From the UHGV virus genome UHGV-0128348: a stretch of 42,240 bases of DNA. One strand, given 5' to 3'. This DNA is from a virus. Below are positions 4,673 through 27,427 of the stretch, piece by piece (within the stretch, counting starts at the first letter, position 1; each line of letters opens with the position of its first letter). A program made the translations under genes and the position numbers. The notes under the pieces are model-generated. The model saw only the letters and a list, made by a program, of their open reading frames with translations, searched no databases and was not told the origin of the DNA.

Positions 4673-4685
4673 AATCTCCTCAGAA

Positions 4686-4712
4686 AGAGAGGGCCGCTAA
4701 GCGGCCCTGAAT
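4686..4712 (-). terminator. terminator downstream of major capsid gene
   Basis: Hairpin GGGCCGCTAAGCGGCCC followed on the minus strand by a T-rich run. Confidence 0.45.
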
Positions 4713-4714
4713 TG

Positions 4715-5935
4715 TCAGCCGCCAGAAGCGGTTACATTACCGGTGACAAATGCTTCCGGACGATAAACTGCTAATGCCAGACGCTCTTCCGCACGAATGG
4801 TGACCATATTTTTAATAAAGTCATCTTCGTTCTCAGTGGAGAGCAGCACTTCGATATCCATGCGATCGAAGATTTGCGCAGCCATGTTGAAGGCTCCAGT
4901 CAGGAAGTTGTTCTGCGCCATAGCCTGAGTTTCCACAACAGGAAGACCCCAGATACGTGGAACACCACCATTGACCGGCTGCGCAATGATGTAGCGGCCT
5001 TCGTTATCTTTGGTCAACTCGATGCCGGCCCAGTCAATCGGGTTCAGTACAAAACCAGACGCCGGATATTCTGCAAGAACGGCCTGCAGAACAGCCAGGC
5101 GAAGACGGTCGATCGGCGTGGCGTTGGACAGGGTAAGCGCTGGAGCAAATTCTGTTGCCTGCGGCAGAATACCGAGGATATTCGCGCCGGTGCCATCGCC
5201 GCTCAACAATTGCTGCTCCTCTTTAAAGCGAAGACCATACTGAGCACGGCCATCGATATAACTGGCCAGACCGGGCGCATCGTCCAGGATCTGACGGGAC
5301 GCTTTAAAATAATGCGCAATGGTACGTACCGGCGCACTTTTCAGCTCAAACTTAATGTCTGATTTTGGCTTCAGGACACCTTCCGCCACAGCTGCAGCAT
5401 TATTGGTAAACCCCGTTTCCTGAACGAATTCAATACCGTTGGATGCAGTATTACCGGGGATCAGCAGGTTACGGATGGTCAGAGTGCGTTCCGGTGGTGC
5501 GATAATGCCCTGAACACGATCGGATACAACCAGACTGTTTGTTGCGCTCACGCCAGTGCCCGTAGTCGCCGGCACGTTCATAATATCTTTCTGTTCCAGC
5601 TTGACGCGGATGCTCTTACGGGCCGAACTGTCCATGCCTTTGAACTCTTCACTTTCGACCACCAGCTCACCGAGCGATTTTCGCTGTGCAGGTGCATCGT
5701 TCGGGCGGCGTGCACCTTTTTGCTCCAGCTCAGTGAGGCGTTCTTTCAGCTCGTTCATCTGATTAAGGCTTTCGTCCGTTCTTTGTTTCAGTTCCAGCGA
5801 AACGGTTTCTCCTGCCTCCATTTTTCTCTTCACGTCTTCACCGAAGTTTTTGACCTGATCAATCACCATGGTGAGCTGGGAGGAGATTTCGCCAATACTT
5901 TGTGGCTGATCGTCAGCCGATTTTTTCTGGTACAT
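4715..5935 (-). CDS. HK97-family major capsid protein
   Basis: 406-aa ORF; N-terminal coiled-coil scaffold-like delta region then capsid-like body; immediately downstream of prohead protease. Confidence 0.85.
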   Translation of the reverse strand: MYQKKSADDQPQSIGEISSQLTMVIDQVKNFGEDVKRKMEAGETVSLELKQRTDESLNQMNELKERLTELEQKGARRPNDAPAQRKSLGELVVESEEFKGMDSSARKSIRVKLEQKDIMNVPATTGTGVSATNSLVVSDRVQGIIAPPERTLTIRNLLIPGNTASNGIEFVQETGFTNNAAAVAEGVLKPKSDIKFELKSAPVRTIAHYFKASRQILDDAPGLASYIDGRAQYGLRFKEEQQLLSGDGTGANILGILPQATEFAPALTLSNATPIDRLRLAVLQAVLAEYPASGFVLNPIDWAGIELTKDNEGRYIIAQPVNGGVPRIWGLPVVETQAMAQNNFLTGAFNMAAQIFDRMDIEVLLSTENEDDFIKNMVTIRAEERLALAVYRPEAFVTGNVTASGG

Positions 5936-7953: not shown

Positions 7954-9690
7954 TCACACAATGATGGGATTACTGAAAAAGTCGTCGATATCGCCAGAAT
8001 CATCCTCATAGCCTTCGGAGGCACCGATTGCCATAGCGCCCGCTACAATGCCGTCGATACGCCCGGTACTTTTTTTCTTGGCAAAAATTCGGTTTTCTTT
8101 CTGATCAGCCTCCGTCACTGCTGAAGCCGCATTCCAGCGAAGACAAGGGTTCGTCCTGATGATAATGACGCTGTCATCAAGCAACTCTTCAAACAATTCG
8201 ATGGAGTGAGGCATCCACAGCCCGGAGTCTTTCGCTTTGTAATACCCTTGCCCATGAGGGATTAAGGGAACAGAAACAGATGCTTCCTCAAGCTCCGGCT
8301 CAAGATATTTAATGCGATACTGGTCGAAGGCGATGGCCTTGATATCAAACTTTTGAGTCAGATCTGCAATGCGCTGGGCAACAAAGCCGTATTTCACTGC
8401 TTTGCCAGGTGTGGTGTGTATGTGACCATCGCGCTCCCAGGCGTCATAAGGTACCCGGTCCGTTTTGGCCCGTTCCAGTAACGTATCTTTCGGGGTCCAG
8501 AACTCCACCAGCAACTTACGTTGTTTTGGAAAAAACAACGCCAGTGCCGTCAAATCACGCGATCCGGACAGGTCCAGACCGCCATAGCATTCCTCACCTT
8601 CCAGTTCATCTGGATCAAAGCTCTCCTCACAACCCATCCAGACATCACTGCTCATCCACGGATTAGCCGCGTCAACCCACTGACAGAAGTTAAGACGTCT
8701 GACGATGCTCTCTTTCGATGGCATCCCGCGGGCCTGAGTCACCTGCTCACGAAGATAGCTTTCTTCAAAGGTGTGACCCAGCGAAGGGTTAGCTTTCTTC
8801 CAGCAGGACTCATCCTTGAAAGGATCGTCTCCTTCATCCAGAGAACAAATGAAGGCAAAAAAGCTGTCATCTTCTATCGAACCGCCAGACACCTTTCGGC
8901 CGTATTCGTGATAGTCATAGCAGACGCTGGTTTTATCGTGCCCACTGTTGGTGATCATGAAAATCAGCGCCTGCCGACGACCTTTGGTACCGGCACGCAT
9001 CATTTCAACGACCTGATTGCTTTTATGCTCGTGAACTTCATCAATAAGAGCACAATGCGGTCGCGGGCCGGACTGCCCGTCATCTGAACTGATTGGACGA
9101 AAGAAGGAACCAGACTGAAGAAAAGCCAGGTTCCATTCCTTACCGGCACCACCTGATTTCTGAATACGTGCGGAAAGAGCTGGAGATTGATCCACCATCG
9201 CAACCGCATCACGGAAAAGGACCATTGCCTGGTCTTTCTTCGTGGCAGCGGCATAAACTTCAGCGCGTGCTTCTTTATCCGCAGTGAGACAGTAAAGTCC
9301 TATACCCGCAGACAGAGGGGATTTACCGGATCCCTTCCCGGACTCCACATAGACCATTCGGAACCGGCGAAAACCTCTGGCGTTTTTCCAGCCAAAAATC
9401 GAACCGACGATGAAGCACTGCCATGGCAGCAACACGAAAGGCTCGCCTTCGAAATCACCACCATTGAGCTTCAGAACTTTCGCAAAATAGTCAATCGAGC
9501 GTTGCGCCGCCTCAACATCCCAGTGCAGACCACGGGCATGGCATGACTTCAGGTCATTGAGATGGCGCTGGCATGAGTTACGGATGTCAGGACCAGCCAG
9601 TTCTTTGCCCGAGGTTACATCCATCGCATATTGGGTTGCAGGATCAACCGAAGAACTTGTCGAGCGTGTCCTCTTCGGGGTCTTCGCCAT
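7954..9690 (-). CDS. terminase large subunit
   Basis: 578-aa ORF; ATPase region (...VESGKGSGKS...) and C-terminal nuclease region; start could alternatively be the internal ATG at 9627. Confidence 0.85.
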   Translation of the reverse strand: MAKTPKRTRSTSSSVDPATQYAMDVTSGKELAGPDIRNSCQRHLNDLKSCHARGLHWDVEAAQRSIDYFAKVLKLNGGDFEGEPFVLLPWQCFIVGSIFGWKNARGFRRFRMVYVESGKGSGKSPLSAGIGLYCLTADKEARAEVYAAATKKDQAMVLFRDAVAMVDQSPALSARIQKSGGAGKEWNLAFLQSGSFFRPISSDDGQSGPRPHCALIDEVHEHKSNQVVEMMRAGTKGRRQALIFMITNSGHDKTSVCYDYHEYGRKVSGGSIEDDSFFAFICSLDEGDDPFKDESCWKKANPSLGHTFEESYLREQVTQARGMPSKESIVRRLNFCQWVDAANPWMSSDVWMGCEESFDPDELEGEECYGGLDLSGSRDLTALALFFPKQRKLLVEFWTPKDTLLERAKTDRVPYDAWERDGHIHTTPGKAVKYGFVAQRIADLTQKFDIKAIAFDQYRIKYLEPELEEASVSVPLIPHGQGYYKAKDSGLWMPHSIELFEELLDDSVIIIRTNPCLRWNAASAVTEADQKENRIFAKKKSTGRIDGIVAGAMAIGASEGYEDDSGDIDDFFSNPIIV

Positions 9691-10108
9691 TCACTTTCAC
9701 CTTCGTCCTTGCCGCTGGCGTCAGACCGAATTCAACCAGGTAACTTTTAAAACGGCGGTCGGCATCGGCCAGCATCGAAACGGCCGGGTTAGCTTTGATA
9801 AGAAAACCACCCTCGGTCTGGACGGTATAGGTTCTTCCCTCTACTGCGATGGTGTCGCGCAACTGAAGAATATCAGCGTAAATATCGCATAGCCGTTCAA
9901 GGGCTAAGGTGTCGGCAACTGTCAACACCCCCATCCCGTCAAGGAGAACAGTCAACCTTCCCCAGGCAACCTTTCCCCAGTCGGTCAGGTGCGCCGGCGG
10001 GCTTGGAATTTCTCGCGCCGGACTCGGTTCTTTATCGTTGAGTTTACGTTTGCCCGGGTTGCCGGAGACCACTTTGAGGTGGGTCGGTTTCGGGCGTCGT
10101 CCTGCCAT
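9644..10108 (-). CDS. terminase small subunit (P27 family)
   Basis: 154-aa ORF MAGRRPKPTHLKVVSGNPGKR...; GGGAGG RBS; overlaps large subunit start. Confidence 0.75.
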   Translation of the reverse strand: MAGRRPKPTHLKVVSGNPGKRKLNDKEPSPAREIPSPPAHLTDWGKVAWGRLTVLLDGMGVLTVADTLALERLCDIYADILQLRDTIAVEGRTYTVQTEGGFLIKANPAVSMLADADRRFKSYLVEFGLTPAARTKVKVNGEDPEEDTLDKFFG

Positions 10109-10289: not shown

Positions 10290-10631
10290 TCACTTAAACC
10301 AATGAGAAGCCGGGTCCAGTGGCATCCCGTTTTCATCGCAGCCGATCACGGTGCCACGCTTCTCCATTCGCTGCTTCGTTGAATCGTGGTGCTGCTTACA
10401 CAACCCTTGCCAGTTCTTCCGGCTCCAGAAAAGCTTTTGCGCCTTCGCTATTGCCTGGCTGTCACCAGAGCGCAGAGCCTCTTTCAGTTTGTGCGGGGTG
10501 ATGTGATCAACCACTGTTGCCGCTGTCACCCTGCCTTGCTCCTGGCACATGACGCACAAGGGGTGCGTACGAAGGAAGATAAGACGCTCACGATCCCACT
10601 TGCTGCCGTAAATGCGGGGCTCTTTGTTCAT
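10290..10631 (-). CDS. HNH endonuclease
   Basis: 113-aa ORF with Cys pairs and ...VDHITPH...CKQHHDSTKQ... HNH motif; typical partner of HK97/P27-type terminases. Confidence 0.8.
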   Translation of the reverse strand: MNKEPRIYGSKWDRERLIFLRTHPLCVMCQEQGRVTAATVVDHITPHKLKEALRSGDSQAIAKAQKLFWSRKNWQGLCKQHHDSTKQRMEKRGTVIGCDENGMPLDPASHWFK

Positions 10632-10640
10632 GCTCTGGTC

Positions 10641-10877
10641 CTATTGCTTGGATGGGCGTACGATCCTCATTTGACCGAACAGCGTCTGCCGCTTAACCTC
10701 GCCGTTCTCGACAGTGAAATGACCACAACTATCGTGCACAGCGGCAATCACCACACCTCTATCATCGTCAGCAGAGAAAACGTGCTTTACCTCAACGCCA
10801 TTGAGATAAACCGTGATACGTTCGCGACCAGGTTCGATGCGTTCGCCCGTATCGTCGTCGAGAACTGTCAGGCGCAT
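10641..10877 (-). CDS. hypothetical small phage protein
   Basis: 78-aa ORF upstream of HNH gene. Confidence 0.45.
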   Translation of the reverse strand: MRLTVLDDDTGERIEPGRERITVYLNGVEVKHVFSADDDRGVVIAAVHDSCGHFTVENGEVKRQTLFGQMRIVRPSKQ

Positions 10878-10884
10878 ATTGCCC

Positions 10885-10915
10885 CCAATAAAAAAGCCCC
10901 ACGTAAGCGGGGCTG
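10885..10915 (-). terminator. rho-independent terminator
   Basis: Hairpin GCCCCGCTTACGTGGGGC followed by TTTTTTATT on the minus strand. Confidence 0.5.
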
Positions 10916-11009
10916 ATAATTCGGGTGTGAATGTACTGAAATACTATTTTGGAAAACTGGCTACTTTTTCTATTTCAGTACAGGCTAGTGTCACATAAGG
11001 ATGCTTCAG

Positions 11010-11273
11010 CTATGTATCGTCTCTTTCTGTAGCCTTCATCACATCATCAAAGGCAGCTTCCTCGTTGTCCTCTGGGTCATCATAGCCATACAACTCATTG
11101 ATGCTATCCGGACCGTCTTCGTCGTCTTCGTCTTCGTCGTCTTCTTCTTCTACTTGGGAATCGTCATCTTCTTGAAAATCATCATCTTCTTGAGAATCAT
11201 CATCTTCTTGAAAATCATCATCTTCTTGAAAATCATCATCTTCTTGAAAATCGTCATCGTAAACATTAGACAT
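11010..11273 (-). CDS. highly acidic hexapeptide-repeat protein (candidate DNA mimic)
   Basis: 87-aa ORF MSNVYDDDFQEDDDFQ... with six EDDD(F/S)Q units then an Asp/Glu-rich tail; encoded by 18-bp tandem DNA repeats. Confidence 0.55.
   Translation of the reverse strand: MSNVYDDDFQEDDDFQEDDDFQEDDDSQEDDDFQEDDDSQVEEEDDEDEDDEDGPDSINELYGYDDPEDNEEAAFDDVMKATERDDT
11146..11259. repeat. 18-bp tandem repeat (about six units, TCATCTTCTTGAAAATCA) inside the acidic protein gene
   Basis: Five near-perfect consecutive 18-mers 11164..11253 plus partial flanking copies. Confidence 0.8.
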
Positions 11274-11391
11274 AAATCGCCCTCAATGATCTTCCTCCAC
11301 AATTTTGTGGAACGAAAATCTTAAACCAGAATTGATTAAATAACTATCGCAGCTTAACCAACAGGTGTGTTTGCAATCATCATTTAGCACT

Positions 11392-11598
11392 TTATGGACA
11401 GTTGGCCTTTACTGCTTTGTTAAGCGCCAGAATGTCGCGCTTGGTCTGCTTATCCAGCACATCGATATCGTGGTCAGTCAGGTAGATGATCCGCACCCAG
11501 TTGCAGGCCGTATCAACGACTACTGGGGCGGGTAAATCTTTCGCGCAGCTCGCGATCAACATAGTCATCGCCCATACGCTTAACGTCTTCCTGTACAT
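11392..11598 (-). CDS. candidate o-spanin (outer-membrane lipoprotein, Rz1-like) overlapping the i-spanin 3' end
   Basis: ATG at 11598 inside ORF 11392..11757; MYRKTLSVWAMTMLIASC... has signal peptide and lipobox-like IASC; runs past i-spanin stop in another frame. Confidence 0.45.
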   Translation of the reverse strand: MYRKTLSVWAMTMLIASCAKDLPAPVVVDTACNWVRIIYLTDHDIDVLDKQTKRDILALNKAVKANCP

Positions 11599-11794
11599 CA
11601 CTGGCCCCTTTCGTGACTTCAGCACGGCGTTCTGCCGCGGCGACAGTAGCAGCGGCGTTTTCTTCGGTACGCAGCTGTTCGGCTTTGGCTTCCGCCTTAC
11701 TTGTTCCGCGAGCATGACCGATGCCAAACGCGCCAGCGATAGCGCCCAGAATGACAACCACCAGCCCCGCGATAGCTTCTATTCCCATGATCAT
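11513..11794 (-). CDS. candidate i-spanin (Rz-like)
   Basis: 93-aa ORF with N-terminal TM helix then charged Ala/Glu-rich helical region; directly downstream of endolysin. Confidence 0.5.
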   Translation of the reverse strand: MIMGIEAIAGLVVVILGAIAGAFGIGHARGTSKAEAKAEQLRTEENAAATVAAAERRAEVTKGASDVQEDVKRMGDDYVDRELRERFTRPSSR

Positions 11795-12420
11795 CCCACC
11801 AGTACCGATTTTGCTTTCAGGAAGCGGGCGCGTCGGTCATCAATGCCGTTTTGCCCGCCGTTGATAATCTGGGTCACCCGCAATAAATCTCCGGGGTATT
11901 TCAAACACCCATTTGATGTGTAAAACCATGCTGCGCTGCGTGCCGCATTAATATCTTTCTCCAACAACTCAGGGTTGCTGACTAAATCCAGTTTCAGTGC
12001 ATTACCGCACTTCATATAATTTTCGAGGAAGGTGATCCCGATAATTCCACGCCCTCGGTATTTCCAGCCATCGCCCGCAGCCTTATTGCCAAAACGATTG
12101 TTGTAGACGAGATTAGCGATCGCTCGTTGACGTTCGATCGGTAAAACCTTTTCGTAAGTTTTACGCCCTAAGGTGTTCGCCTGGTCTTGCGTGATGCGCT
12201 TCACCTTCACAAAACCAGCCAGGCCGGCAACGCTATAGTTAAAACTTTCGACCATCTGGGTAAATGATGTGCTTTCGTGTCCACACTGCGCTATGAACAT
12301 CGCCTGATCGAGTGGAGCTGTAATGCCGAATTCTTTCATCGCAGCATCAATATGCGGAAACCAGCGCGCAGCTAACCCGGCGCTGATACCAGCCGCCCTT
12401 TGAAATTGTGATTGGTTCAT
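11791..12420 (-). CDS. endolysin, glycoside hydrolase family 19 (chitinase-like lysozyme)
   Basis: 209-aa ORF with ...CGHES... and ...YRGRGIIGITFLENY... GH19-type motifs; lies in the lysis cassette. Confidence 0.75.
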   Translation of the reverse strand: MNQSQFQRAAGISAGLAARWFPHIDAAMKEFGITAPLDQAMFIAQCGHESTSFTQMVESFNYSVAGLAGFVKVKRITQDQANTLGRKTYEKVLPIERQRAIANLVYNNRFGNKAAGDGWKYRGRGIIGITFLENYMKCGNALKLDLVSNPELLEKDINAARSAAWFYTSNGCLKYPGDLLRVTQIINGGQNGIDDRRARFLKAKSVLVG

Positions 12421-13319: not shown

Positions 13320-13730
13320 ATGGAAATTATTTCAGTAATCGGAGTGATACTGACACTGCTAGGGCTCTTTATTCCGTCACTAATCAGTAACCATTCGTCA
13401 CGTAAGGCAGAGTTCAGGAAGCATTCCGCACCACTGCGGGGAAAGTTGCTAAGCGAAATTGAGGCTATTGAAGGAGGCTCTTATCCATTCAGGCTTATCA
13501 GCGATGCTGATTTCAATCAGTTGCTACCTTACGCCCCGAGGCGCAGGAAAAACGCTCTCCTTGATGCTTACACCAGTTATCTCGACGCTCATACGATGGC
13601 CACCACGAAGCACTGGCACGATGAACATCCATCCGATGGAATGCTATTTTTCCCGACGGGTTTCTCAGTCACTAATTCAGATGAGGTACTGAAGAAAATG
13701 CAACCTCTGAAAAAAGAACTCAGCAGATAG
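13320..13730 (+). CDS. hypothetical membrane-anchored protein (plus-strand cassette between lysis genes and late cargo)
   Basis: 136-aa ORF with N-terminal TM helix; opposite strand to the late operon; plus-strand terminator at 13929..13957. Confidence 0.5.
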   Translation: MEIISVIGVILTLLGLFIPSLISNHSSRKAEFRKHSAPLRGKLLSEIEAIEGGSYPFRLISDADFNQLLPYAPRRRKNALLDAYTSYLDAHTMATTKHWHDEHPSDGMLFFPTGFSVTNSDEVLKKMQPLKKELSR

Positions 13731-15012: not shown

Positions 15013-16302
15013 TTACAACTCTCGGTAAGCTGGTTGCAAAGCTTCACACCATTGTCTTAAAGTCGAAGCTCTTCGTTTCTTAGTTTTATCGCTAAGCGAT
15101 AAGCACATATCAAACAAAAAAGGCTCCGCCGTTGTGGGATCTAGCTCTGAAAGATTTTTTGCCTGGCTCCATTGTATCCAAGCCCAACCACAATGACTGG
15201 CCTCAAAACCACGAGCCGCAATTCTTAATCTCTTTTCATGATCAGATTCAGCTAATTGTTGTCCCATTGCAGAGATTGAACCATTTTCATTAAGTAAACC
15301 TAGTATTTTACCTGCGTGTATATAGTACAGTATATGGCGAGTATCCAACCCTGTACTAATTAGATCGAGATATATCCCCTTCCATTTTAACTCTACAACT
15401 TTAAAAACTTGATCAATTAAATTTGCTTGGGGCACCTGATAACCGCCAACAACCTGGGCAGACATCTTAGCCAAAGCTGTTGAGTAAAACTCAGCATCCG
15501 TTTTTCGAACCGTTAATACAATCTCATCTGTATAGTTATTTTTCAATTCAAAACTTGAACTTGTATTAACAACAGAGTCAAATAAAGCCGAAAGCATTTG
15601 AACATCAATCTTATTATTTTTAATAAAACTAACTATATCACCCTTAAGACGAATCAGATCATTTAGCTCTTTTAATAACGGCTCTACTGTCTGCATTTTC
15701 TCTGCCTGAAAAGAAAGCACAAAAGATCCAGGGCGACCCGCCACTGGTCGCATCAAGTCCTTTTCATCAAAAGAGTTAATTATAGATGAATATAAGTTAT
15801 TGAAACATTCGAATAATTTAGAAACACCACTTAGTACTAATGGGTCCGTAGATGACTTAGTTTTCTCCACATGTATTTCATGCGTTGAAAACTCAATTGC
15901 CTTGCCTATTTTACCATTAGCTAAAACAGGCAGTACAGAGCTTATAAACAATCCACTTTGTGGCAAAGTCATGTTGTTAGATACTTCAGACGAATCTAAA
16001 GCCAATGCTACAACACGCTCATCCTCATAAAAAATATCTAACTGATAGTATTTCTTTTGTTCTTGGTGCATTAGAACGCTACGAATATCTATTCTTTTTC
16101 TTTCCAAAGATTCTAAGCGTTCAGCAGATATAGGAATGATGATCCACTTTTCGAAGTCATCAAAGTCCCCTAACCAATAAACAACAAAGAGACTATTTAT
16201 CTCATTAGTCACTGAGAAAAATTTTGGACCTTCGAAAAACTCATAGACATTTTCGTATTTTAGTTCACCAAACACGCTGTCTTTAAGGAAGATGTTACTC
16301 AT
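15013..16302 (-). CDS. hypothetical protein, 429 aa, second gene of AT-rich two-gene cassette
   Basis: Long ORF with low GC; 4-nt overlap with upstream gene; no Walker A or other motif I recognise. Confidence 0.65.
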   Translation of the reverse strand: MSNIFLKDSVFGELKYENVYEFFEGPKFFSVTNEINSLFVVYWLGDFDDFEKWIIIPISAERLESLERKRIDIRSVLMHQEQKKYYQLDIFYEDERVVALALDSSEVSNNMTLPQSGLFISSVLPVLANGKIGKAIEFSTHEIHVEKTKSSTDPLVLSGVSKLFECFNNLYSSIINSFDEKDLMRPVAGRPGSFVLSFQAEKMQTVEPLLKELNDLIRLKGDIVSFIKNNKIDVQMLSALFDSVVNTSSSFELKNNYTDEIVLTVRKTDAEFYSTALAKMSAQVVGGYQVPQANLIDQVFKVVELKWKGIYLDLISTGLDTRHILYYIHAGKILGLLNENGSISAMGQQLAESDHEKRLRIAARGFEASHCGWAWIQWSQAKNLSELDPTTAEPFLFDMCLSLSDKTKKRRASTLRQWCEALQPAYREL

Positions 16303-16745
16303 TTATCCAACCTCCTTATACAAACGAATTTGGCATGAACCTGAGATTCGTTGTAAAGCCATATTGTGTAGTGAGTTGAATCAGGAGCTCCAGTTTTTAG
16401 AATAACACCGTCATTAGCTGCAAACTCACCCTGAGCAACAAATCGCTCTCCAATACCATCAGGAAACTTATTAAAGGCATTAATAATTGAATTTTCATCA
16501 GTATAAACTGATACGCCATAACAACATTTTAGCTTATGCCCTTTAAATTTTTTTAATCGTTTAGGATTTTCATCTTTCATATTCAAAAAGCACTGATCCC
16601 CTGGAGGATTTGCCTTTGTAAGACGAAAGAATACACCTGAAGCATCTTGCGCTTCCTTAGGTGGAGTGCCCGCAGGGAAGTCCGCGGGAAACGTTAACGA
16701 TTTTTTATTTTTTGTCGTTTGCTGTGAGATTTGAGTCATGTCCAT
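16299..16745 (-). CDS. hypothetical protein, 148 aa, first gene of AT-rich two-gene cassette
   Basis: ORF preceded by about 300 bp of very AT-rich sequence; no signal peptide; no recognisable domain. Confidence 0.6.
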   Translation of the reverse strand: MDMTQISQQTTKNKKSLTFPADFPAGTPPKEAQDASGVFFRLTKANPPGDQCFLNMKDENPKRLKKFKGHKLKCCYGVSVYTDENSIINAFNKFPDGIGERFVAQGEFAANDGVILKTGAPDSTHYTIWLYNESQVHAKFVCIRRLDK

Positions 16746-17058: not shown

Positions 17059-17131
17059 TGCTGGTTGACGGAACTGAACCGCCTACATCCTGCTTACAAG
17101 GCAGGCGCTCTCCCAACTGAGCTAACCCAGC
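17059..17131 (-). tRNA. tRNA-like gene, anticodon UGU (Thr), with non-canonical features
   Basis: Minus-strand cloverleaf: acceptor GCTGGGT, D-arm GCTCAGTTGGGAGAGC, anticodon stem CCTGC/GCAGG with loop CTTGTAA, T-arm GGCGG-TTCAGTT-CCGTC; G6-A67 mismatch; G at position 58; no encoded CCA. Confidence 0.5.
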
Positions 17132-18171
17132 AAATTACGCATTTCCATGACCGTTTGATCAAATCGCTCGGTTTCCAGTTCAACACCGATTCCACTCCGC
17201 CCGAGCAGAGCAGCTTGCTTTAGTGTGGAACCCGAACCAGCAAAGAAATCAGCTACGACATCCCCTGGCCAACTGCTTGCAGTAATGATCTGCTGAAGCA
17301 TATCGGCAGGTTTTTCGCATGGGTGCTTACCTGGATAAAACTGAACCGGCTTATGTGTCCAGACGTCGGTATATGGCACCGTGACCGACACGCTAAATGG
17401 GCGCCGTAACCGGTAATACTCCTGCTGAAGTTCAGAATACTTCCGGTTAAGTGATTGCCAGGTAGCGACAAGCTGGTGGTGAGGTTTTCCCAGTTCGTTG
17501 CGTGAGTGCTTATCCATGGCGATTTTTTGAAACAAAGCCTGCAACTTCAAATAATCGGCTTCATTCGGCAGTTGCCACTGGCTAAGGCCAAACCAGTGGG
17601 AAACCATATTTTTTTTACCCGTGGCTTCTGCAATCTGGGCCGACGTCACGCCAAGAGATTCCCGGGCATCCCGGAAGTAAGAAATTAAAGGCGTCATGAC
17701 GTGTTGCTTTAACTCATTACACTTTGCGGCATATCCATCGTCTTTGGGCCTGTATGGCCCCTGATAATGGTCGGCAAAAATGATACGCTCAGTTGCGGGG
17801 AAATAAGCGCGTAAGCTCTCCTTATTGCAGCCGTTCCATCGCCCTGATGGCTTAGCCCAGATGATATGGTTGAGCAAGTTAAACCGCTCTCTCACCAACA
17901 GCTCAATATCCGCTGCCAGGCGTTGCCCACAGAAGAGATACATGCTGCCGGCAGGTTTTAACACTCGCCAGAACTGTGCCAGACAGCTATCCAGCCAACG
18001 TAAATAGTCCTCGTCCCCCTTCCATTGGTTATCCCAGCCGTTTGGCTTCACCTTAAAATAAGGCGGATCGGTAACAATAAGATCAATGGAGTTATCGGGT
18101 ATCGATGGGAGGTATTGCAGGCAATCAGCATTGATTAATTCAATACTGGATATTTTTACAGTATTTTTCAT
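17122..18171 (-). CDS. DNA N6-adenine methyltransferase (DPPY motif, Dam-like phage methylase)
   Basis: 349-aa ORF with N-terminal ...LIVTDPPYF... and C-terminal ...FFAGSGSTL... AdoMet motif; last 10 nt overlap the tRNA-like gene. Confidence 0.8.
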   Translation of the reverse strand: MKNTVKISSIELINADCLQYLPSIPDNSIDLIVTDPPYFKVKPNGWDNQWKGDEDYLRWLDSCLAQFWRVLKPAGSMYLFCGQRLAADIELLVRERFNLLNHIIWAKPSGRWNGCNKESLRAYFPATERIIFADHYQGPYRPKDDGYAAKCNELKQHVMTPLISYFRDARESLGVTSAQIAEATGKKNMVSHWFGLSQWQLPNEADYLKLQALFQKIAMDKHSRNELGKPHHQLVATWQSLNRKYSELQQEYYRLRRPFSVSVTVPYTDVWTHKPVQFYPGKHPCEKPADMLQQIITASSWPGDVVADFFAGSGSTLKQAALLGRSGIGVELETERFDQTVMEMRNLLG

Positions 18172-22484: not shown

Positions 22485-22957
22485 TCAGCCTCCAGCACTA
22501 TCTTCAACTCAAACGGAACATCTCCTCCGCAATAGCAGAGCGGGCCAAGGTCAGACATAAGGCTCCACAGGGTCATTGACGTATAGCCATTTTCGTCTGT
22601 TACCGGGGGCGAAAAGTCCCCGAAGATCCTCGGGTGCTGGATTCGATTCTGCTCGTGTTGTTTTTCCAAATGTCTGAGGGAGACTTCATTAAGTTTCACT
22701 TTTACGATGCTGTTGAGATTGACCGATATTTCTCTGGCCAACAGCGAAGGGGTGATACTGATACCGCGAGAAACCCCGCGGGTAATCTTGATGGCCCCTT
22801 TTCTCTCCAGCGCCTTGAGGTGCGTTGCTGCTGCATTGGGGGACCGGCACCCCAGCATTCCGGTCAGTTCGTAAGTTGTAGGCGGAAAACCATGTTTACG
22901 CTGATATTCGATCAGGAGGTCCAGGACCTCCTGCTGCCTTAAGGTCAAGGAAGTCAT
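22481..22957 (-). CDS. LexA-like winged-helix DNA-binding protein with uncharacterised C-terminal domain
   Basis: ORF 22481..22984; likely ATG 22957 overlapping the C5-MTase stop (ATGA); ...LTLRQQEVLDLLIEYQRKHGFPPTTYELTGMLGCRSPNAAATHLKALERKGAIKI... resembles LexA N-terminal DBD. Confidence 0.55.
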   Translation of the reverse strand: MTSLTLRQQEVLDLLIEYQRKHGFPPTTYELTGMLGCRSPNAAATHLKALERKGAIKITRGVSRGISITPSLLAREISVNLNSIVKVKLNEVSLRHLEKQHEQNRIQHPRIFGDFSPPVTDENGYTSMTLWSLMSDLGPLCYCGGDVPFELKIVLEAE

Positions 22958-24936
22958 GCTGCCTGCTCCTCTCTGTTCACGCACATTTCGGGTAAGTTGG
23001 CGCGTACCAGCGCTTCGGCGAACGGCGGCGGGACGGCATTGCCACAGCGCGCGACCTGCTTATCTTTCGCGTATTTCACGCCGCGGTAATCCTGGTCAAT
23101 GATGTACCACTCCGGAAAGCCCTGCGCCCGGTAGAGCTCGTGCGGCTGCAGCATGCGCATGCCGATATCAACGATTCGGTAAGTCACCCCGCCAATTTCC
23201 ACCAGTCCGGTGCTATCCTTCCCGCAGTATTCCTGCAGGAACGCCAGCACCTGCTGCGCGCGCTCGTCGTCGTAGTCCTCGACCGCCAGGGTCGTTTTAA
23301 CCTCCCCCACGTGCTGGCCGCCAGCAGTGATAGTCGGCATCGGCTCGTCAGTAGTCTGGCCGTCACGGCAAGTACCGCGCAGTTTAACCAGATGAGAAGC
23401 GACTAATGCGTGGTGATCGACAGTCGTTACTGAATGCGCTGGCTCATCCAGCCCCACGCCGGCGCCCTGATAATTCCCACCGTAGTGTTTTGCCAGGAAC
23501 GCACCAACTACGGCATGTTTCCCACCACCAGCCACAACAGTTCCTAGCGGCTTATCCAGTCCTGGCACGCGAGGAGCCTGGCCGGGCCGTTCTCCGTATC
23601 CCATTTGAATGAGCGTCGGCACAACCAGCTGCGATTTACCGCCGCCGCCCGCGGTGATTGTTGCGCTTGGTTCATCGGCACGGTGTCCGACGCTGGCGCC
23701 AAACTGACGAGCGATGACCGGCGCAACAACACAAGCTCGTGACTCTTTCAGGATGGTGTGAGCGGGTTTATCGAGCGGGCGTGGTTTAGCCTGGTACTCG
23801 CTGCCGCCATTGCCAGCCAGGAACGGAGCCAGCTCTGCTTCAACAATACCCATAGCGTGACCATTCCCGCCCGGGCGTTTTGCGGTACCGGCCGTCACCG
23901 TCGGCAACGGATCGGTGACTTCCTGCCCGGTAGCTCCGGTTCGGAATTTTGTCAGATGAGGTACCGCAATTGCGTAGCCGTGGGTTTTCGTAATCGTCTG
24001 TAGCGGATCGTCCAGCGCCTGTCCCCGGAAACAGTCATATTTGCCACGTGTCGTTGTGTGATTGCACTTCACGATGAATGGCGAAGCACTTTCGATAACA
24101 AAGCGCTGAATGCCGCGGGCAATCCGTTTTAGCGTATTCTCTGCCAGTGACTTTTTGCGACCGAAGATGCTCGGCGCGGGGATTGACCAGTCTATGCATT
24201 CCGCAGCTGTACGCCACGGCTCAAGCTGGCCCGCCAGCACGGCGGCAGACTTCGGATCCCCGTGCGTGGCTTCCGGCCAGACTATCGGTTTCCCGTCCCG
24301 GCGCATCACCATGAAGAACCGCTTACGGATGGTCGGCGCGCCATAATCGCAGGCGCGCAGCTCGCGAAAATCGACGACATAACCCAGCCCGGCAATTAAG
24401 CGCTTGGCCTGCTCGCTATCCGGTGAAAACTCCAGAAACTCGCAACACTCCACCAGTGCAGGATGATCTGCTGGAATACCGGTGGTAAGCATCCCGACAA
24501 ATGCATTGAAAGTTTCACCGATGCGTGCCGGATCCGGTCGCATTTCTGCCGCGAGTAACGGACCCCACGTCTTAAACTCTTCGACGTTTTCCAGCATCAT
24601 GACTCGCGGGCCAACATCCAGCGCCCAACGAATGACGATCCATGCCAGCCCTCGAATATCTTTCTCTACTGGTTTAGCACCTTTCGCTTTAGAAAAGTGA
24701 CGACAGTCAGGCGAGAACCATGCCAGGCCGACAGGCTTACCACTGGTAGCGGCTAATGGGGATACATCAAACACACTTTCGCAATAGTGAAGCGTGTCGG
24801 GATGGTTAGTGCGGTGCATAGCAACGGCGTTAACATCGTGGTTAATCGCGATATCAACGCTACGCCCTATCGCCAGCTCAATACCTGTACTGGCGCCACC
24901 GCCACCAGCAAAATTATCGACAATAATCTCACGCAT
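22954..24936 (-). CDS. DNA (cytosine-5)-methyltransferase with long repeat-containing variable region
   Basis: 660-aa ORF; motif I FAGGGG, PC-type FSPDCRHFS, ENV (MLENVEEF), motif X RCGNAV; seven D(E/K)P..T(I/V)TAGG-like repeats between them. Confidence 0.8.
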   Translation of the reverse strand: MREIIVDNFAGGGGASTGIELAIGRSVDIAINHDVNAVAMHRTNHPDTLHYCESVFDVSPLAATSGKPVGLAWFSPDCRHFSKAKGAKPVEKDIRGLAWIVIRWALDVGPRVMMLENVEEFKTWGPLLAAEMRPDPARIGETFNAFVGMLTTGIPADHPALVECCEFLEFSPDSEQAKRLIAGLGYVVDFRELRACDYGAPTIRKRFFMVMRRDGKPIVWPEATHGDPKSAAVLAGQLEPWRTAAECIDWSIPAPSIFGRKKSLAENTLKRIARGIQRFVIESASPFIVKCNHTTTRGKYDCFRGQALDDPLQTITKTHGYAIAVPHLTKFRTGATGQEVTDPLPTVTAGTAKRPGGNGHAMGIVEAELAPFLAGNGGSEYQAKPRPLDKPAHTILKESRACVVAPVIARQFGASVGHRADEPSATITAGGGGKSQLVVPTLIQMGYGERPGQAPRVPGLDKPLGTVVAGGGKHAVVGAFLAKHYGGNYQGAGVGLDEPAHSVTTVDHHALVASHLVKLRGTCRDGQTTDEPMPTITAGGQHVGEVKTTLAVEDYDDERAQQVLAFLQEYCGKDSTGLVEIGGVTYRIVDIGMRMLQPHELYRAQGFPEWYIIDQDYRGVKYAKDKQVARCGNAVPPPFAEALVRANLPEMCVNREEQAA

Positions 24937-26073: not shown

Positions 26074-26519
26074 AAGTCACCTCCGCAGTAATTTCCTGCC
26101 AGATAGCATGACCCGGCGGAATCATTCATGTTTCTGGCGTTTCGAACAGAAGCATTCTTAAGACGCAGGTACCGCTCTCTTGCTTTAGCCGTACAGTTGC
26201 TGTCACAAAGTTGCTGCCATACCGTCGCCGCACGGCGGTAATAGCGTTTCTCTTCCAGCTTTTTGGCTGTCGCTTCAAGGGCAAGAATCTCCCCCGAAAG
26301 CCCACCAGGCAGGTACTCTTCAATATCGATGGATCCCGCTACGAAGTAGATAAACCCACCAGTAACTTCAACGCTGGCAAGTTCCCCGTCGTAGTACAGG
26401 CGATGAACAGCGCTCTTCACTGTTACCGGTTTGGTTTCAGGAAATGCCGCAGTGATATCGCGCAGCATTTTGCCTGGATTCTTCTCAATAAATTCAAAGA
26501 TCGACTTGGCTATGTTCAT
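26061..26519 (-). CDS. hypothetical protein (possible PerC-like C-terminal region)
   Basis: 152-aa ORF directly downstream of replication initiator gene. Confidence 0.45.
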   Translation of the reverse strand: MNIAKSIFEFIEKNPGKMLRDITAAFPETKPVTVKSAVHRLYYDGELASVEVTGGFIYFVAGSIDIEEYLPGGLSGEILALEATAKKLEEKRYYRRAATVWQQLCDSNCTAKARERYLRLKNASVRNARNMNDSAGSCYLAGNYCGGDLCSD

Positions 26520-27427
26520 CCCCGGAACCCCCGTGGAATAGTGGTTTGTACTGGACTAATTGAATTAACATCCCGCGGTCTGGTTTTGTCCCACAACTCC
26601 CTTGGCGGGCGGCCTTTGGCATCCCAACGGATAGCGCTTTGCAGATATCCCTCGAATTTTTTAGGGCCGAAAAGTGTCTCGGGTCGCATGTACTGGTATT
26701 GCTCGTCGTTGCCATGCCAGTGCTCATGCTTAACGTCGATTACCAGTTTCAAGTCGCTAACGGTATGACCTTCGCGGAGGCGGGCGCGAATGTTCTCCAG
26801 TGAGGTCTTAGATTTCTGGTAACGGGAACCGCTGACCAGATTCAGGTGTGCCAGAACTTCGATCGCGTTATCGGTAATAACAACTTCAGGATCCGGCTTA
26901 TCGTCGGGTTCCGCAGGAGCCCGACAAGAAGGTTTTTTAGATGACGGATCTAATGACGGATCTAATGACGGATCGCCTTCAACCATTGAGGGGTCCTCCC
27001 GCAATATTTGAGGGGGTACAGACCCATTATTTGAGGCATCAGAATTTGACCCCTCAAATTTTGAACCCTCAAATTCTGAGGCATCAAATTTTGATTGTTC
27101 ACGTGGCGTTGCGTAGAAGATTTTTGCTTCAGCTGCTGCACGTTCCAGCATGTCAACATTGAGTTTATAAACGTTCGAATTATTCTTTCCGCCCACGCGC
27201 CGTTCCTGCTTCTTCAGCCAGCCTTTAGCCTGAAGCTTTTTGATAGCGCTGCGGACAGTATTCTCGCTCTTTGCGCCGATCTGTCGCTGAATAGTGGTTA
27301 CCGCTGGCCATGACACCCCTTCGTCATTACTGAAGTCTGCCAGGCGAGCCATGACCGCTATTTCAGAGATTATCAGCCCTTTGAAAGCGCATGCTTCCCA
27401 TACGAGGCCGTGTAATTTACTGCTCAT
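26516..27427 (-). CDS. replication initiator (lambda O-like; N-terminal HTH, conserved phage C-terminus)
   Basis: 303-aa ORF; N-terminal ...WPAVTTIQRQIGAKSENTVRSAIKKLQAKGWL...; central low-complexity linker encoded by iteron-like repeats. Confidence 0.7.
   Translation of the reverse strand: MSSKLHGLVWEACAFKGLIISEIAVMARLADFSNDEGVSWPAVTTIQRQIGAKSENTVRSAIKKLQAKGWLKKQERRVGGKNNSNVYKLNVDMLERAAAEAKIFYATPREQSKFDASEFEGSKFEGSNSDASNNGSVPPQILREDPSMVEGDPSLDPSLDPSSKKPSCRAPAEPDDKPDPEVVITDNAIEVLAHLNLVSGSRYQKSKTSLENIRARLREGHTVSDLKLVIDVKHEHWHGNDEQYQYMRPETLFGPKKFEGYLQSAIRWDAKGRPPRELWDKTRPRDVNSISPVQTTIPRGFRG
26941..27094. repeat. putative origin of replication: tandem 12-bp repeats plus iteron-like inverted/direct repeats inside the O-like gene
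   Basis: ATGACGGATCTA x3 (26941..26976); ATTTGAGGGGG / CCCCTCAAATT inverted copies and TGAGGCATCA(G)AATTTGA direct copies (27005..27094). Confidence 0.55.

Follow-up and report, generated by a model that had tools for sequence, protein, structure and literature searches.

The question raised by this locus is which part of a small, extremely acidic phage protein is held by selection, and what that part might do. The locus lies in the 42,240-nucleotide virus genome UHGV-0128348 (the whole stretch is hereafter referred to as the window), where the open reading frame (ORF) list and its translation place a minus-strand coding sequence at positions 11010–11273 (stop codon, 11010–11012) with an 87-residue product, MSNVYDDDFQEDDDFQEDDDFQEDDDSQEDDDFQEDDDSQVEEEDDEDEDDEDGPDSINELYGYDDPEDNEEAAFDDVMKATERDDT. 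An initial annotation had noticed its tandem repeats and taken the protein for a typical DNA mimic of the Ocr or ArdA kind. Our comparisons point elsewhere: the conserved, selected part is the C-terminal 30 residues outside the repeat, which the initial annotation had missed. Aspartate and glutamate account for 48 of the 87 residues (55%), against two lysine or arginine residues, giving a net charge of about −46; the extreme acidity that had been reported is real, but the accompanying figure of about 60% was too high.

The acidic linker of the protein is made of two tracts. The first, at 11151–11258 (minus strand), consists of six 18-bp tandem units and is the part that varies in copy number. 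Tandem Repeats Finder reports it at 11159–11258 with an 18-bp period, 5.6 copies, 95% matches and a score of 179, an array that far exceeds chance. In the register DDD(F/S)Q(E/V), a unit-by-unit reading gives three DDDFQE units followed by DDDSQE, DDDFQE and a terminal DDDSQV, that is, four DDDFQE, one DDDSQE and one DDDSQV, in agreement with the six hexapeptides described initially. The second tract, EEEDDEDEDDED (11114–11150, minus strand), is a GAA/GAC microsatellite-like sequence in which the same program finds periods of 3, 9 and 15; the array and this tract together form the linker that lies directly N-terminal to the conserved C-terminal module.

The repeat number had been expected to differ between strains, and it does. 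We found four further copies of the gene, all in near-identical prophages. With F standing for DDDFQE and S for DDDSQE, the window has the six-unit order F F F S F plus the terminal DDDSQV (87 residues). The copies in Klebsiella michiganensis GCA_049597855 (L004) and in a sequencing-run assembly (L005) retain DDDSQV as their only unit and encode 57 residues, with flanks 98–99% identical to those of the window. A human-gut metagenome contig (L010; flanks 95% identical) has seven units, six F and the terminal one, in 99 residues, and an IMG/VR viral contig (L006; flanks 96% identical) has eight, F F S S F F F and the terminal one, in 102 residues. Within the cassette that carries the gene, the window differs from L004 and L005 by exactly one 90-bp in-frame block and one base substitution. 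The order of the units varies among the alleles, and so does the length of the second tract (EEE, EEEEE or EEEEEE; DDEDEDDED or DDEDEDEDDEDED); the net charge ranges from about −26 with one unit to about −57 with eight. The ribosome-binding site (RBS) and the terminator are intact and identical in all of them. Given that a one-unit allele exists, the repeat itself appears to be dispensable. By these comparisons the gene is an in-frame variable-number coding tandem repeat. As each unit measures 18 bp, any change in copy number keeps the frame automatically, and maintenance of the frame is therefore no evidence of selection.

What is held constant lies behind the linker. The family-defining C-terminal module, GPDSINELYGYDDPEDNEEAAFDDVMKATER, is encoded at 11022–11114 (minus strand) and was delimited by invariant columns, a hidden Markov model (HMM) search, the predicted local distance difference test score (pLDDT) of a structural model and purifying selection; only the last ~30 residues (GPDSINELYGYDDPEDNEEAAFDDVMKATE, two helices) are both conserved and under purifying selection. 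Two distant homologues, P0002 (51 residues) and P0003 (58 residues), have only the part GPxSxxxxYGYDDPEDNEEAAFDDVxKAxE in common. In a comparison of the 31-codon core between the window and the distant homologue L007, 18 codons differ synonymously and 3 non-synonymously, which indicates strong purifying selection on the module core in the minus-strand frame.

When 1.84 billion representative proteins were searched exhaustively with an HMM of the core, 29 matched. In every non-repetitive match the module stands at the very C-terminus, the protein ending within a few residues of it. A follow-on profile search extended the family to 79 protein clusters, all annotated as ‘hypothetical’ and devoid of Pfam domains; the three close clusters and the about 80 wider ones have nothing in common except the extreme C-terminal module. 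Its consensus is (E)LPSLxD-h-YGY(E/D)(D/N)xEDN(E/D)EAA(L/F)DDVLK(A/I)QE, corresponding to window residues 54–85, and eight positions are invariant across 42 sequences (G63, N70, E72, A73, A74, D76, K80 and E83 in window numbering). According to a listing of the linkers of 94 members, the module is preceded by an acidic, low-complexity segment of variable length, from ~10 to ~70 residues. Short forms (44–100 residues), the window protein among them, consist of an acidic tract and the module, and long forms (~141–181 residues) have an additional N-terminal helical domain of ~85 residues. The family ranges over the beta- and gamma-proteobacteria, the named hosts including Pseudomonas, Zoogloea, Massilia, Paraburkholderia, Burkholderia-related genera, Halomonas, Stenotrophomonas and Klebsiella. 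A tight version of the motif had no match in a collection of 185,579 species represented by one genome each, and single matches in viral and metagenome collections; a full-text literature search for the motif strings found no paper containing them. We conclude that the family, which is carried by mobile elements, is previously undescribed. Among small acidic accessory proteins of mobile elements, what appears to be new is this family together with its disordered, repeat-tunable variant.

The initial annotation had suggested looking for an elongated acidic surface by structure prediction. AlphaFold2, run on the window protein with the 42-sequence alignment, gave a different picture: residues 1–55, which hold the acidic repeat, have no secondary structure (pLDDT 56–60), and residues 58–62 and 67–85 form two helices (pLDDT about 95), confidence being confined to residues ~56–85. 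In the model of a long form, four helices are confidently predicted; a linker with pLDDT below 50 separates them from the two C-terminal helices, which score about 90. The acidic repeat region is thus predicted to be intrinsically disordered. Library searches gave no assignment. The window protein had no Pfam match at E ≤ 0.1; PHROG, NCBIfam and PADLOC returned nothing meaningful for it or for its short and long relatives; profiles run against every solved-structure sequence (E ≤ 10), solved DNA mimics included, found nothing relevant; and Foldseek against viral models found nothing below E = 1. A tblastn search of the phage collection also found nothing, probably owing to low-complexity masking. 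One long form had a weak, sub-threshold match to archaeal P1, which we ascribe to composition.

Is the acidic ORF a gene at all? A Shine-Dalgarno-like GAGGG (11280–11284, minus strand, by sequence reading) lies 6 nt before the ATG. This RBS, the orientation of the neighbours, the terminator and the 18 versus 3 codon differences in the core together show that the acidic ORF is a real, selected gene. On the opposite strand, an Ile/Phe/Leu-rich ORF of 107 residues (11001–11324, plus strand) was rejected as a shadow of the GAT and GAA codons, since it is without an RBS, runs against the operon direction and is not kept as an ORF in L007 or L009, and since it is the minus-strand frame that is under purifying selection.

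All genes around the acidic gene lie on the minus strand, as it does itself. Upstream in the direction of transcription are two holin genes (PF16931 and PF05449; 12688–13077 and 12420–12698), a GH19 endolysin gene (11791–12420) and, just upstream, an i-spanin/o-spanin pair (phrog_1026 and phrog_1275; 11392–11794). Downstream, beyond a terminator, follow a 78-residue ORF (phrog_3540; 10641–10877), an HNH endonuclease gene (phrog_2323; 10290–10631), TerS (9644–10108) and TerL (7954–9690). The position between the lysis genes and the packaging module had been described correctly. The o-spanin stop codon is separated from the acidic gene by an AT-rich spacer of 118 bp (11274–11391, minus strand), characterized by its sequence and by promoter and terminator scans. 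No sigma-70-like promoter was detected in the spacer on this strand, not even in a relaxed scan requiring at least 8 of 12 matches, other promoter types being outside the scans, and the terminator scan found no minus-strand terminator between the spanin stop codon and the acidic gene. With neither a sigma-70-like promoter nor a terminator after the spanins, the acidic gene is most likely transcribed with the late operon that runs from lysis to packaging. Directly 5′ of the GGAGG/GAGGG ribosome-binding region, at 11297–11310, lies the palindrome CCACAAAATTGTGG, unchanged in L004, L005 and L006, which may serve as an operator-like site or form a small hairpin.

The gene does have the terminator of its own that had been assigned to it. 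The intrinsic terminator, identified in the terminator scan at 10885–10914 (minus strand), reads AGCCCCGC-TTAC-GTGGGGCT followed by a T-run, with a stem of 8 pairs, 6 of them G-C, and closes the cassette; the scan placed stem and T-run at 10914–10895. We infer that it would stop only transcription that is not antiterminated. Just upstream of it, in the 3′ untranslated region, a repeat search revealed a perfect 12-nt inverted repeat, TGTACTGAAATA / TATTTCAGTACA, with a 27-nt spacer (10932–10982, minus strand), which is kept in the other alleles and could act as an RNA stability element or a protein-binding site. The 133-nt 3′ region 10880–11012 (minus strand) folds as RNA at −40.7 kcal/mol (z = −3.7). 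An Rfam scan of 10500–11900 gave only sub-threshold chance matches at the terminator region.

To delimit the insertion, we compared positions 10600–11800 by megablast with 50,697 phage records. Seventeen phages matched, and their matches end either at the spanin (~11392–11424) or at the 78-residue ORF (up to ~10898). None of the 17 records covers 10899–11391; the cassette is absent from these related Klebsiella and Escherichia phages, in which other small hypothetical genes occupy the same slot. A megablast comparison with complete E. coli genomes gave no match. The segment thus bounded by the megablast ends and by composition, ~490 bp at 10899–11391 (minus strand), has a G+C content of 40%, against 50–55% in the flanks. 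By these features the acidic gene lies within an acquired cassette of ~490 bp in an accessory slot just downstream of the spanin genes.

The module occurs in diverse settings elsewhere. In the viral contig L013, a 58-residue family member comes directly after an unrelated lysis cassette of lambdoid type (holin, lysozyme and Rz with embedded Rz1) and thus occupies the same slot as the window gene. In L016, a member lies in a long one-strand run of small genes that resembles a phage early region. The long form of Metapseudomonas otitidis (L011) adjoins genes for DUF2274, TrbI, TrbG, TrbF and TrbL, and another short form is located between an integrase gene and a Trb-type type IV secretion system (T4SS), with a methyltransferase gene adjacent. 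In view of the neighbouring Trb genes, the module was also considered as a secretion signal for the T4SS, a role that does not fit the phage members. As a separate observation, P0003 is encoded on a 1.3-kb contig (L009, 19–802) directly downstream of a VapD/Cas2-like ORF of 94 residues (weak PF09827 match) and of a small ORF with weak helix-turn-helix-type matches; the context is possibly that of a plasmid or a toxin-antitoxin-like locus. The ~85-residue N-terminal domain of the long forms also exists alone, as the 102-residue hypothetical protein WP_000136652.1 (L029, 1138–1446) on plasmid pETEC_5 of E. coli E24377A; E. coli and Shigella both have small mobilisable plasmids of the MOBP type that carry this stand-alone domain.

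In an 80-residue subfamily, the gene overlaps by 8 nt that of a ~333-residue protein with TALE-like repeats (match to Hax3, PDB 4osl, E = 1.3e-7). The pair is conserved and lies in defence islands, where its neighbours include GmrSD, a QatC-like protein, DNA methylases, nSTAND, SNF2, McrBC and PycTM, and the pair may be an undescribed defence or regulatory pair. Pairs of a TALE-like protein and a small Cys-rich protein were noted at L015 7247–8243, L025 5965–7243, L026 4546–5782, and 5001–6276 of both L031 and L032. In distant Burkholderia pairs the small partner keeps the Cys-rich N-terminal part, but its C-terminal part is Cys-rich as well and is not the acidic module; from this different C-terminus we conclude that the module was swapped into the small partner in one lineage. 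The module is portable, being found alone with an acidic tract, fused to a helical domain or fused to a Cys-rich segment. The counterpart of the DDD(F/S)Q unit in the 80-residue subfamily is DVDFQN or DDDSQN, with the same alternation of Phe and Ser.

The linker has been remodelled in other lineages as well. The long form on the chromosome of Terasakiispira papahanaumokuakeensis (L012) has in its linker an 18-bp repeat of its own (4685–4758; 4.1 copies, 98% matches) encoding GLDEDE units, and the M. otitidis orthologue in L011 is without any such repeat. Further long forms carry long DDSG-type tracts. As judged from these sequences, linkers have been expanded by tandem repeats independently at least twice.

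We tentatively favour a reading, to which we give somewhat less than an even chance, in which the protein is a late-gene accessory-cassette product whose tail docks on a partner while its length-variable, disordered polyanion competes with nucleic acid. The conserved, acidic, amphipathic two-helix module would dock on a specific partner protein, or would first dimerise. The tethered polyanion would then occupy a nucleic-acid-binding surface on or near the partner, or repel nucleic acid from it, and the protein would serve the mobile element as an electrostatic competitor or decoy in anti-defence or host takeover. The repeat number would be a fast-evolving length dial and not an essential part. 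In favour of this reading we count the settings with an integrase, T4SS genes and a methyltransferase, and the location of other members in defence islands, among genes for GmrSD, a QatC-like protein, methylases and nSTAND.

Several points weigh against it. Placement in a late operon is unexpected for a protein that protects incoming DNA. Such defence and methylase genes are common on mobile elements, and their association with the family is therefore circumstantial. Some long forms are encoded by isolated chromosomal genes in no evident mobile-element context; one of these adjoins a methyltransferase fragment. The aromatic residues of the linker are conserved neither across the family nor in the one-unit allele, and the repeat unit thus does not appear to be a binding motif. 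Finally, a unit of 30 residues in two helices might just as well serve for dimerisation, with no specificity for a target.

According to the alternative that fares best, though improbable, the module is a generic oligomerisation or docking tag and the protein regulates a DNA-binding protein of its own element, as an anti-repressor, a chaperone or an antitoxin-like partner would, rather than acting on host defence. No candidate partner gene is adjacent in the window, however, the neighbours being the spanin genes and, past the terminator, the 78-residue ORF of an unrelated family. Moreover, the small partner in the distant TALE-like pairs is without the module, and the module is thus not the part that binds the 333-residue protein. 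As a Type II or orphan antitoxin the protein was rejected, with no adjacent toxin gene (the neighbours being as just described) and no Pfam, NCBIfam or PADLOC match.

The competitor reading also allows a bolder extension, which we regard as rather improbable: the module would be a portable targeting tag, used by phages, conjugative elements and defence-island genes alike for docking on a single conserved nucleic-acid-binding hub of the proteobacteria, and the polyacidic tract a tunable, disordered nucleic-acid mimic. Together they would constitute a new class of disordered inhibitors, for anti-defence or host takeover, with potency or specificity set by repeat slippage as an arms-race dial.

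It is unlikely, in our estimate, that the gene is a functionally neutral passenger in this prophage and its repeat variation plain replication slippage with no selective meaning. Such a view would accommodate the automatic preservation of the frame by 18-bp changes, the great rarity of the gene in the motif searches described above, and the fact that close phage relatives manage without it. Against it stand the strong purifying selection on the module and its conservation across beta- and gamma-proteobacteria, the uniform integrity of the RBS and the terminator in all alleles, and the recurrence of independent linker expansions within the family.

A lower probability still attaches to a strict form of the proposal of the initial annotation, that of an anti-restriction protein folded as a classical DNA mimic like Ocr or ArdA, in which a rigid array of carboxylates would stand in for the backbone of B-DNA and so obstruct Type I restriction-modification or BREX enzymes. 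The protein is indeed small and very acidic, properties associated with DNA mimicry (PMC9836394), it is encoded by a mobile element, and some of the family are encoded in the vicinity of orphan methyltransferases or within defence islands. The proposal is nevertheless at odds with the lack of any Pfam or PHROG match and of any sequence match to a solved structure, with the predicted disorder of the acidic tract and the dispensability of the repeat in the one-unit allele, and with the location of the gene in a late operon, where no sigma-70-like promoter of its own was found. The conserved part, a 30-residue tail, is too small for imitating a long DNA duplex. A looser version, an electrostatic nucleic-acid competitor or anti-defence protein, is plausible. 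Lastly, a lysis or packaging accessory (a scaffold, or a protein regulating spanins, HNH nuclease or terminase) would suit the position between the lysis and HNH/terminase genes, the probable co-transcription and the placement directly after Rz/Rz1 in L013, but is very unlikely, as phages with the same lysis or packaging modules have no such gene and as family members are also found where lysis and packaging genes are absent: on conjugative elements, plasmid-like contigs and chromosomal islands.

If the competitor mechanism is true, a disordered, length-tunable type would join the short list of nucleic-acid-mimicking inhibitors, the characterised ones of which are rigid and folded, and the C-terminal module would provide a name and a search handle for about 80 unannotated clusters from phages, conjugative elements, plasmids and defence islands. 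The alleles with 1, 6, 7 and 8 units in near-identical Klebsiella prophages amount to a natural experiment on whether function depends on the length of a polyanionic tail. Should the gene prove neutral, it would still be a clean case of in-frame repeats evolving rapidly in the accessory slot of a prophage.

The remainder of the window is a lambdoid, HK97-like prophage with a Q antiterminator, two orphan DNA methyltransferases and a CI-like repressor. The methyltransferase genes lie at 17122–18171 and 22954–24936 and specify an N6_N4_Mtase and a 660-residue C5 methylase, respectively, a complement consistent with self-protection against restriction systems. Variable cargo is found between the Q/methyltransferase region and the holins, at 15013–16745 and 13320–13730. 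The former segment contains a DUF6575/DUF7226 protein of 429 residues and a 148-residue partner, in place of which L004 has an AP2/HNH_3 gene; the latter is an opposite-strand ORF of 136 residues that is conserved in L004 and L006. A 303-residue ORF at 26516–27427 (minus strand) contains short tandem arrays at 26941–26974 (12 bp, 2.8 copies, 100% matches) and 27029–27094 (15 or 30 bp, 4.3 or 2.2 copies, respectively), which resemble the origin iterons located within lambdoid replication-initiator genes.

How does the acidic protein compare with known systems? Its cassette recalls the morons of lambdoid phages, such as lambda bor, in being inserted between conserved modules, in its deviant composition, in its own terminator and in its post-lysis slot. 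A moron would also have a promoter of its own; as the sigma-70 scans found none for the acidic gene, its expression from the lysogen is not expected. The gene likewise resembles variable-number tandem repeat (VNTR) loci, with a unit that is a multiple of three and with copy number (1, 6, 7 or 8) and unit order that differ among near-identical genomes. It is not an on/off phase switch, only the length and charge of a disordered segment being changed, nor is it connected with surface antigens.

Both Ocr and ArdA fold into rigid dimers, and Ocr is expressed early, from the genome end that enters first. Like Ocr (T7 gp0.3) and ArdA, the window protein is small, very acidic and encoded by a mobile element, and competition with DNA for a DNA-binding protein is plausible for it too. 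In contrast to them, it showed no sequence similarity in the Pfam and solved-structure searches, its acidic tract is predicted to be disordered and is variable in length, and its conserved part is a C-terminal module of 30 residues; unlike that of Ocr, its gene lies in a late operon with no sigma-70-like promoter found upstream. As the searches found no sequence similarity, AlphaFold2 predicts no ordered fold for the acidic region and the promoter scans give no sign of early expression, the protein should not, in our judgement, be classed as Ocr- or ArdA-like.

The RecBCD-inhibiting DNA mimics T7 gp5.9 and lambda Gam are comparable in size and charge, and the window module could likewise dimerise. 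Gp5.9 is a small, highly acidic (pI 4.0), helical dimer; gp5.9 and Gam are both compact, dimeric and helical, and small size and acidity are features associated with DNA mimicry (PMC9836394). The window protein has the small size and the high acidity, and its ordered part is confined to the two predicted C-terminal helices. No sequence similarity to gp5.9 or Gam emerged from the solved-structure search. Whereas gp5.9 displays its charges on the ordered surface of a compact parallel coiled coil, most of the charge of the window protein is in the disordered repeat.

A last comparison, with the acidic tip of the single-stranded DNA-binding protein (SSB) and with the ribosomal stalk proteins P1/P2 and L7/L12, concerns architecture alone and is an analogy. 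The specific idea that DDDF imitates the SSB tip (DDDIPF) was not supported: Ser replaces Phe in two units of the window, and the idea was dropped because Ser also stands in the only unit of the one-unit allele and because many family linkers contain no aromatic residue. There is no homology to the SSB tip or the stalk proteins; the family module consists of two helices of ~30 residues and not of an 8–15-residue tip, and the family linker is polyacidic rather than Gly/Pro/Ala-rich. The layout of a tethered peptide is nevertheless common to both groups, namely an optional N-terminal domain as an anchor, a flexible linker and a short conserved C-terminal element, which would be the binding part. 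In this arrangement the acidic protein and its relatives appear closer to such tethered-peptide proteins, the SSB tip and the ribosomal stalk among them, than to rigid mimics.

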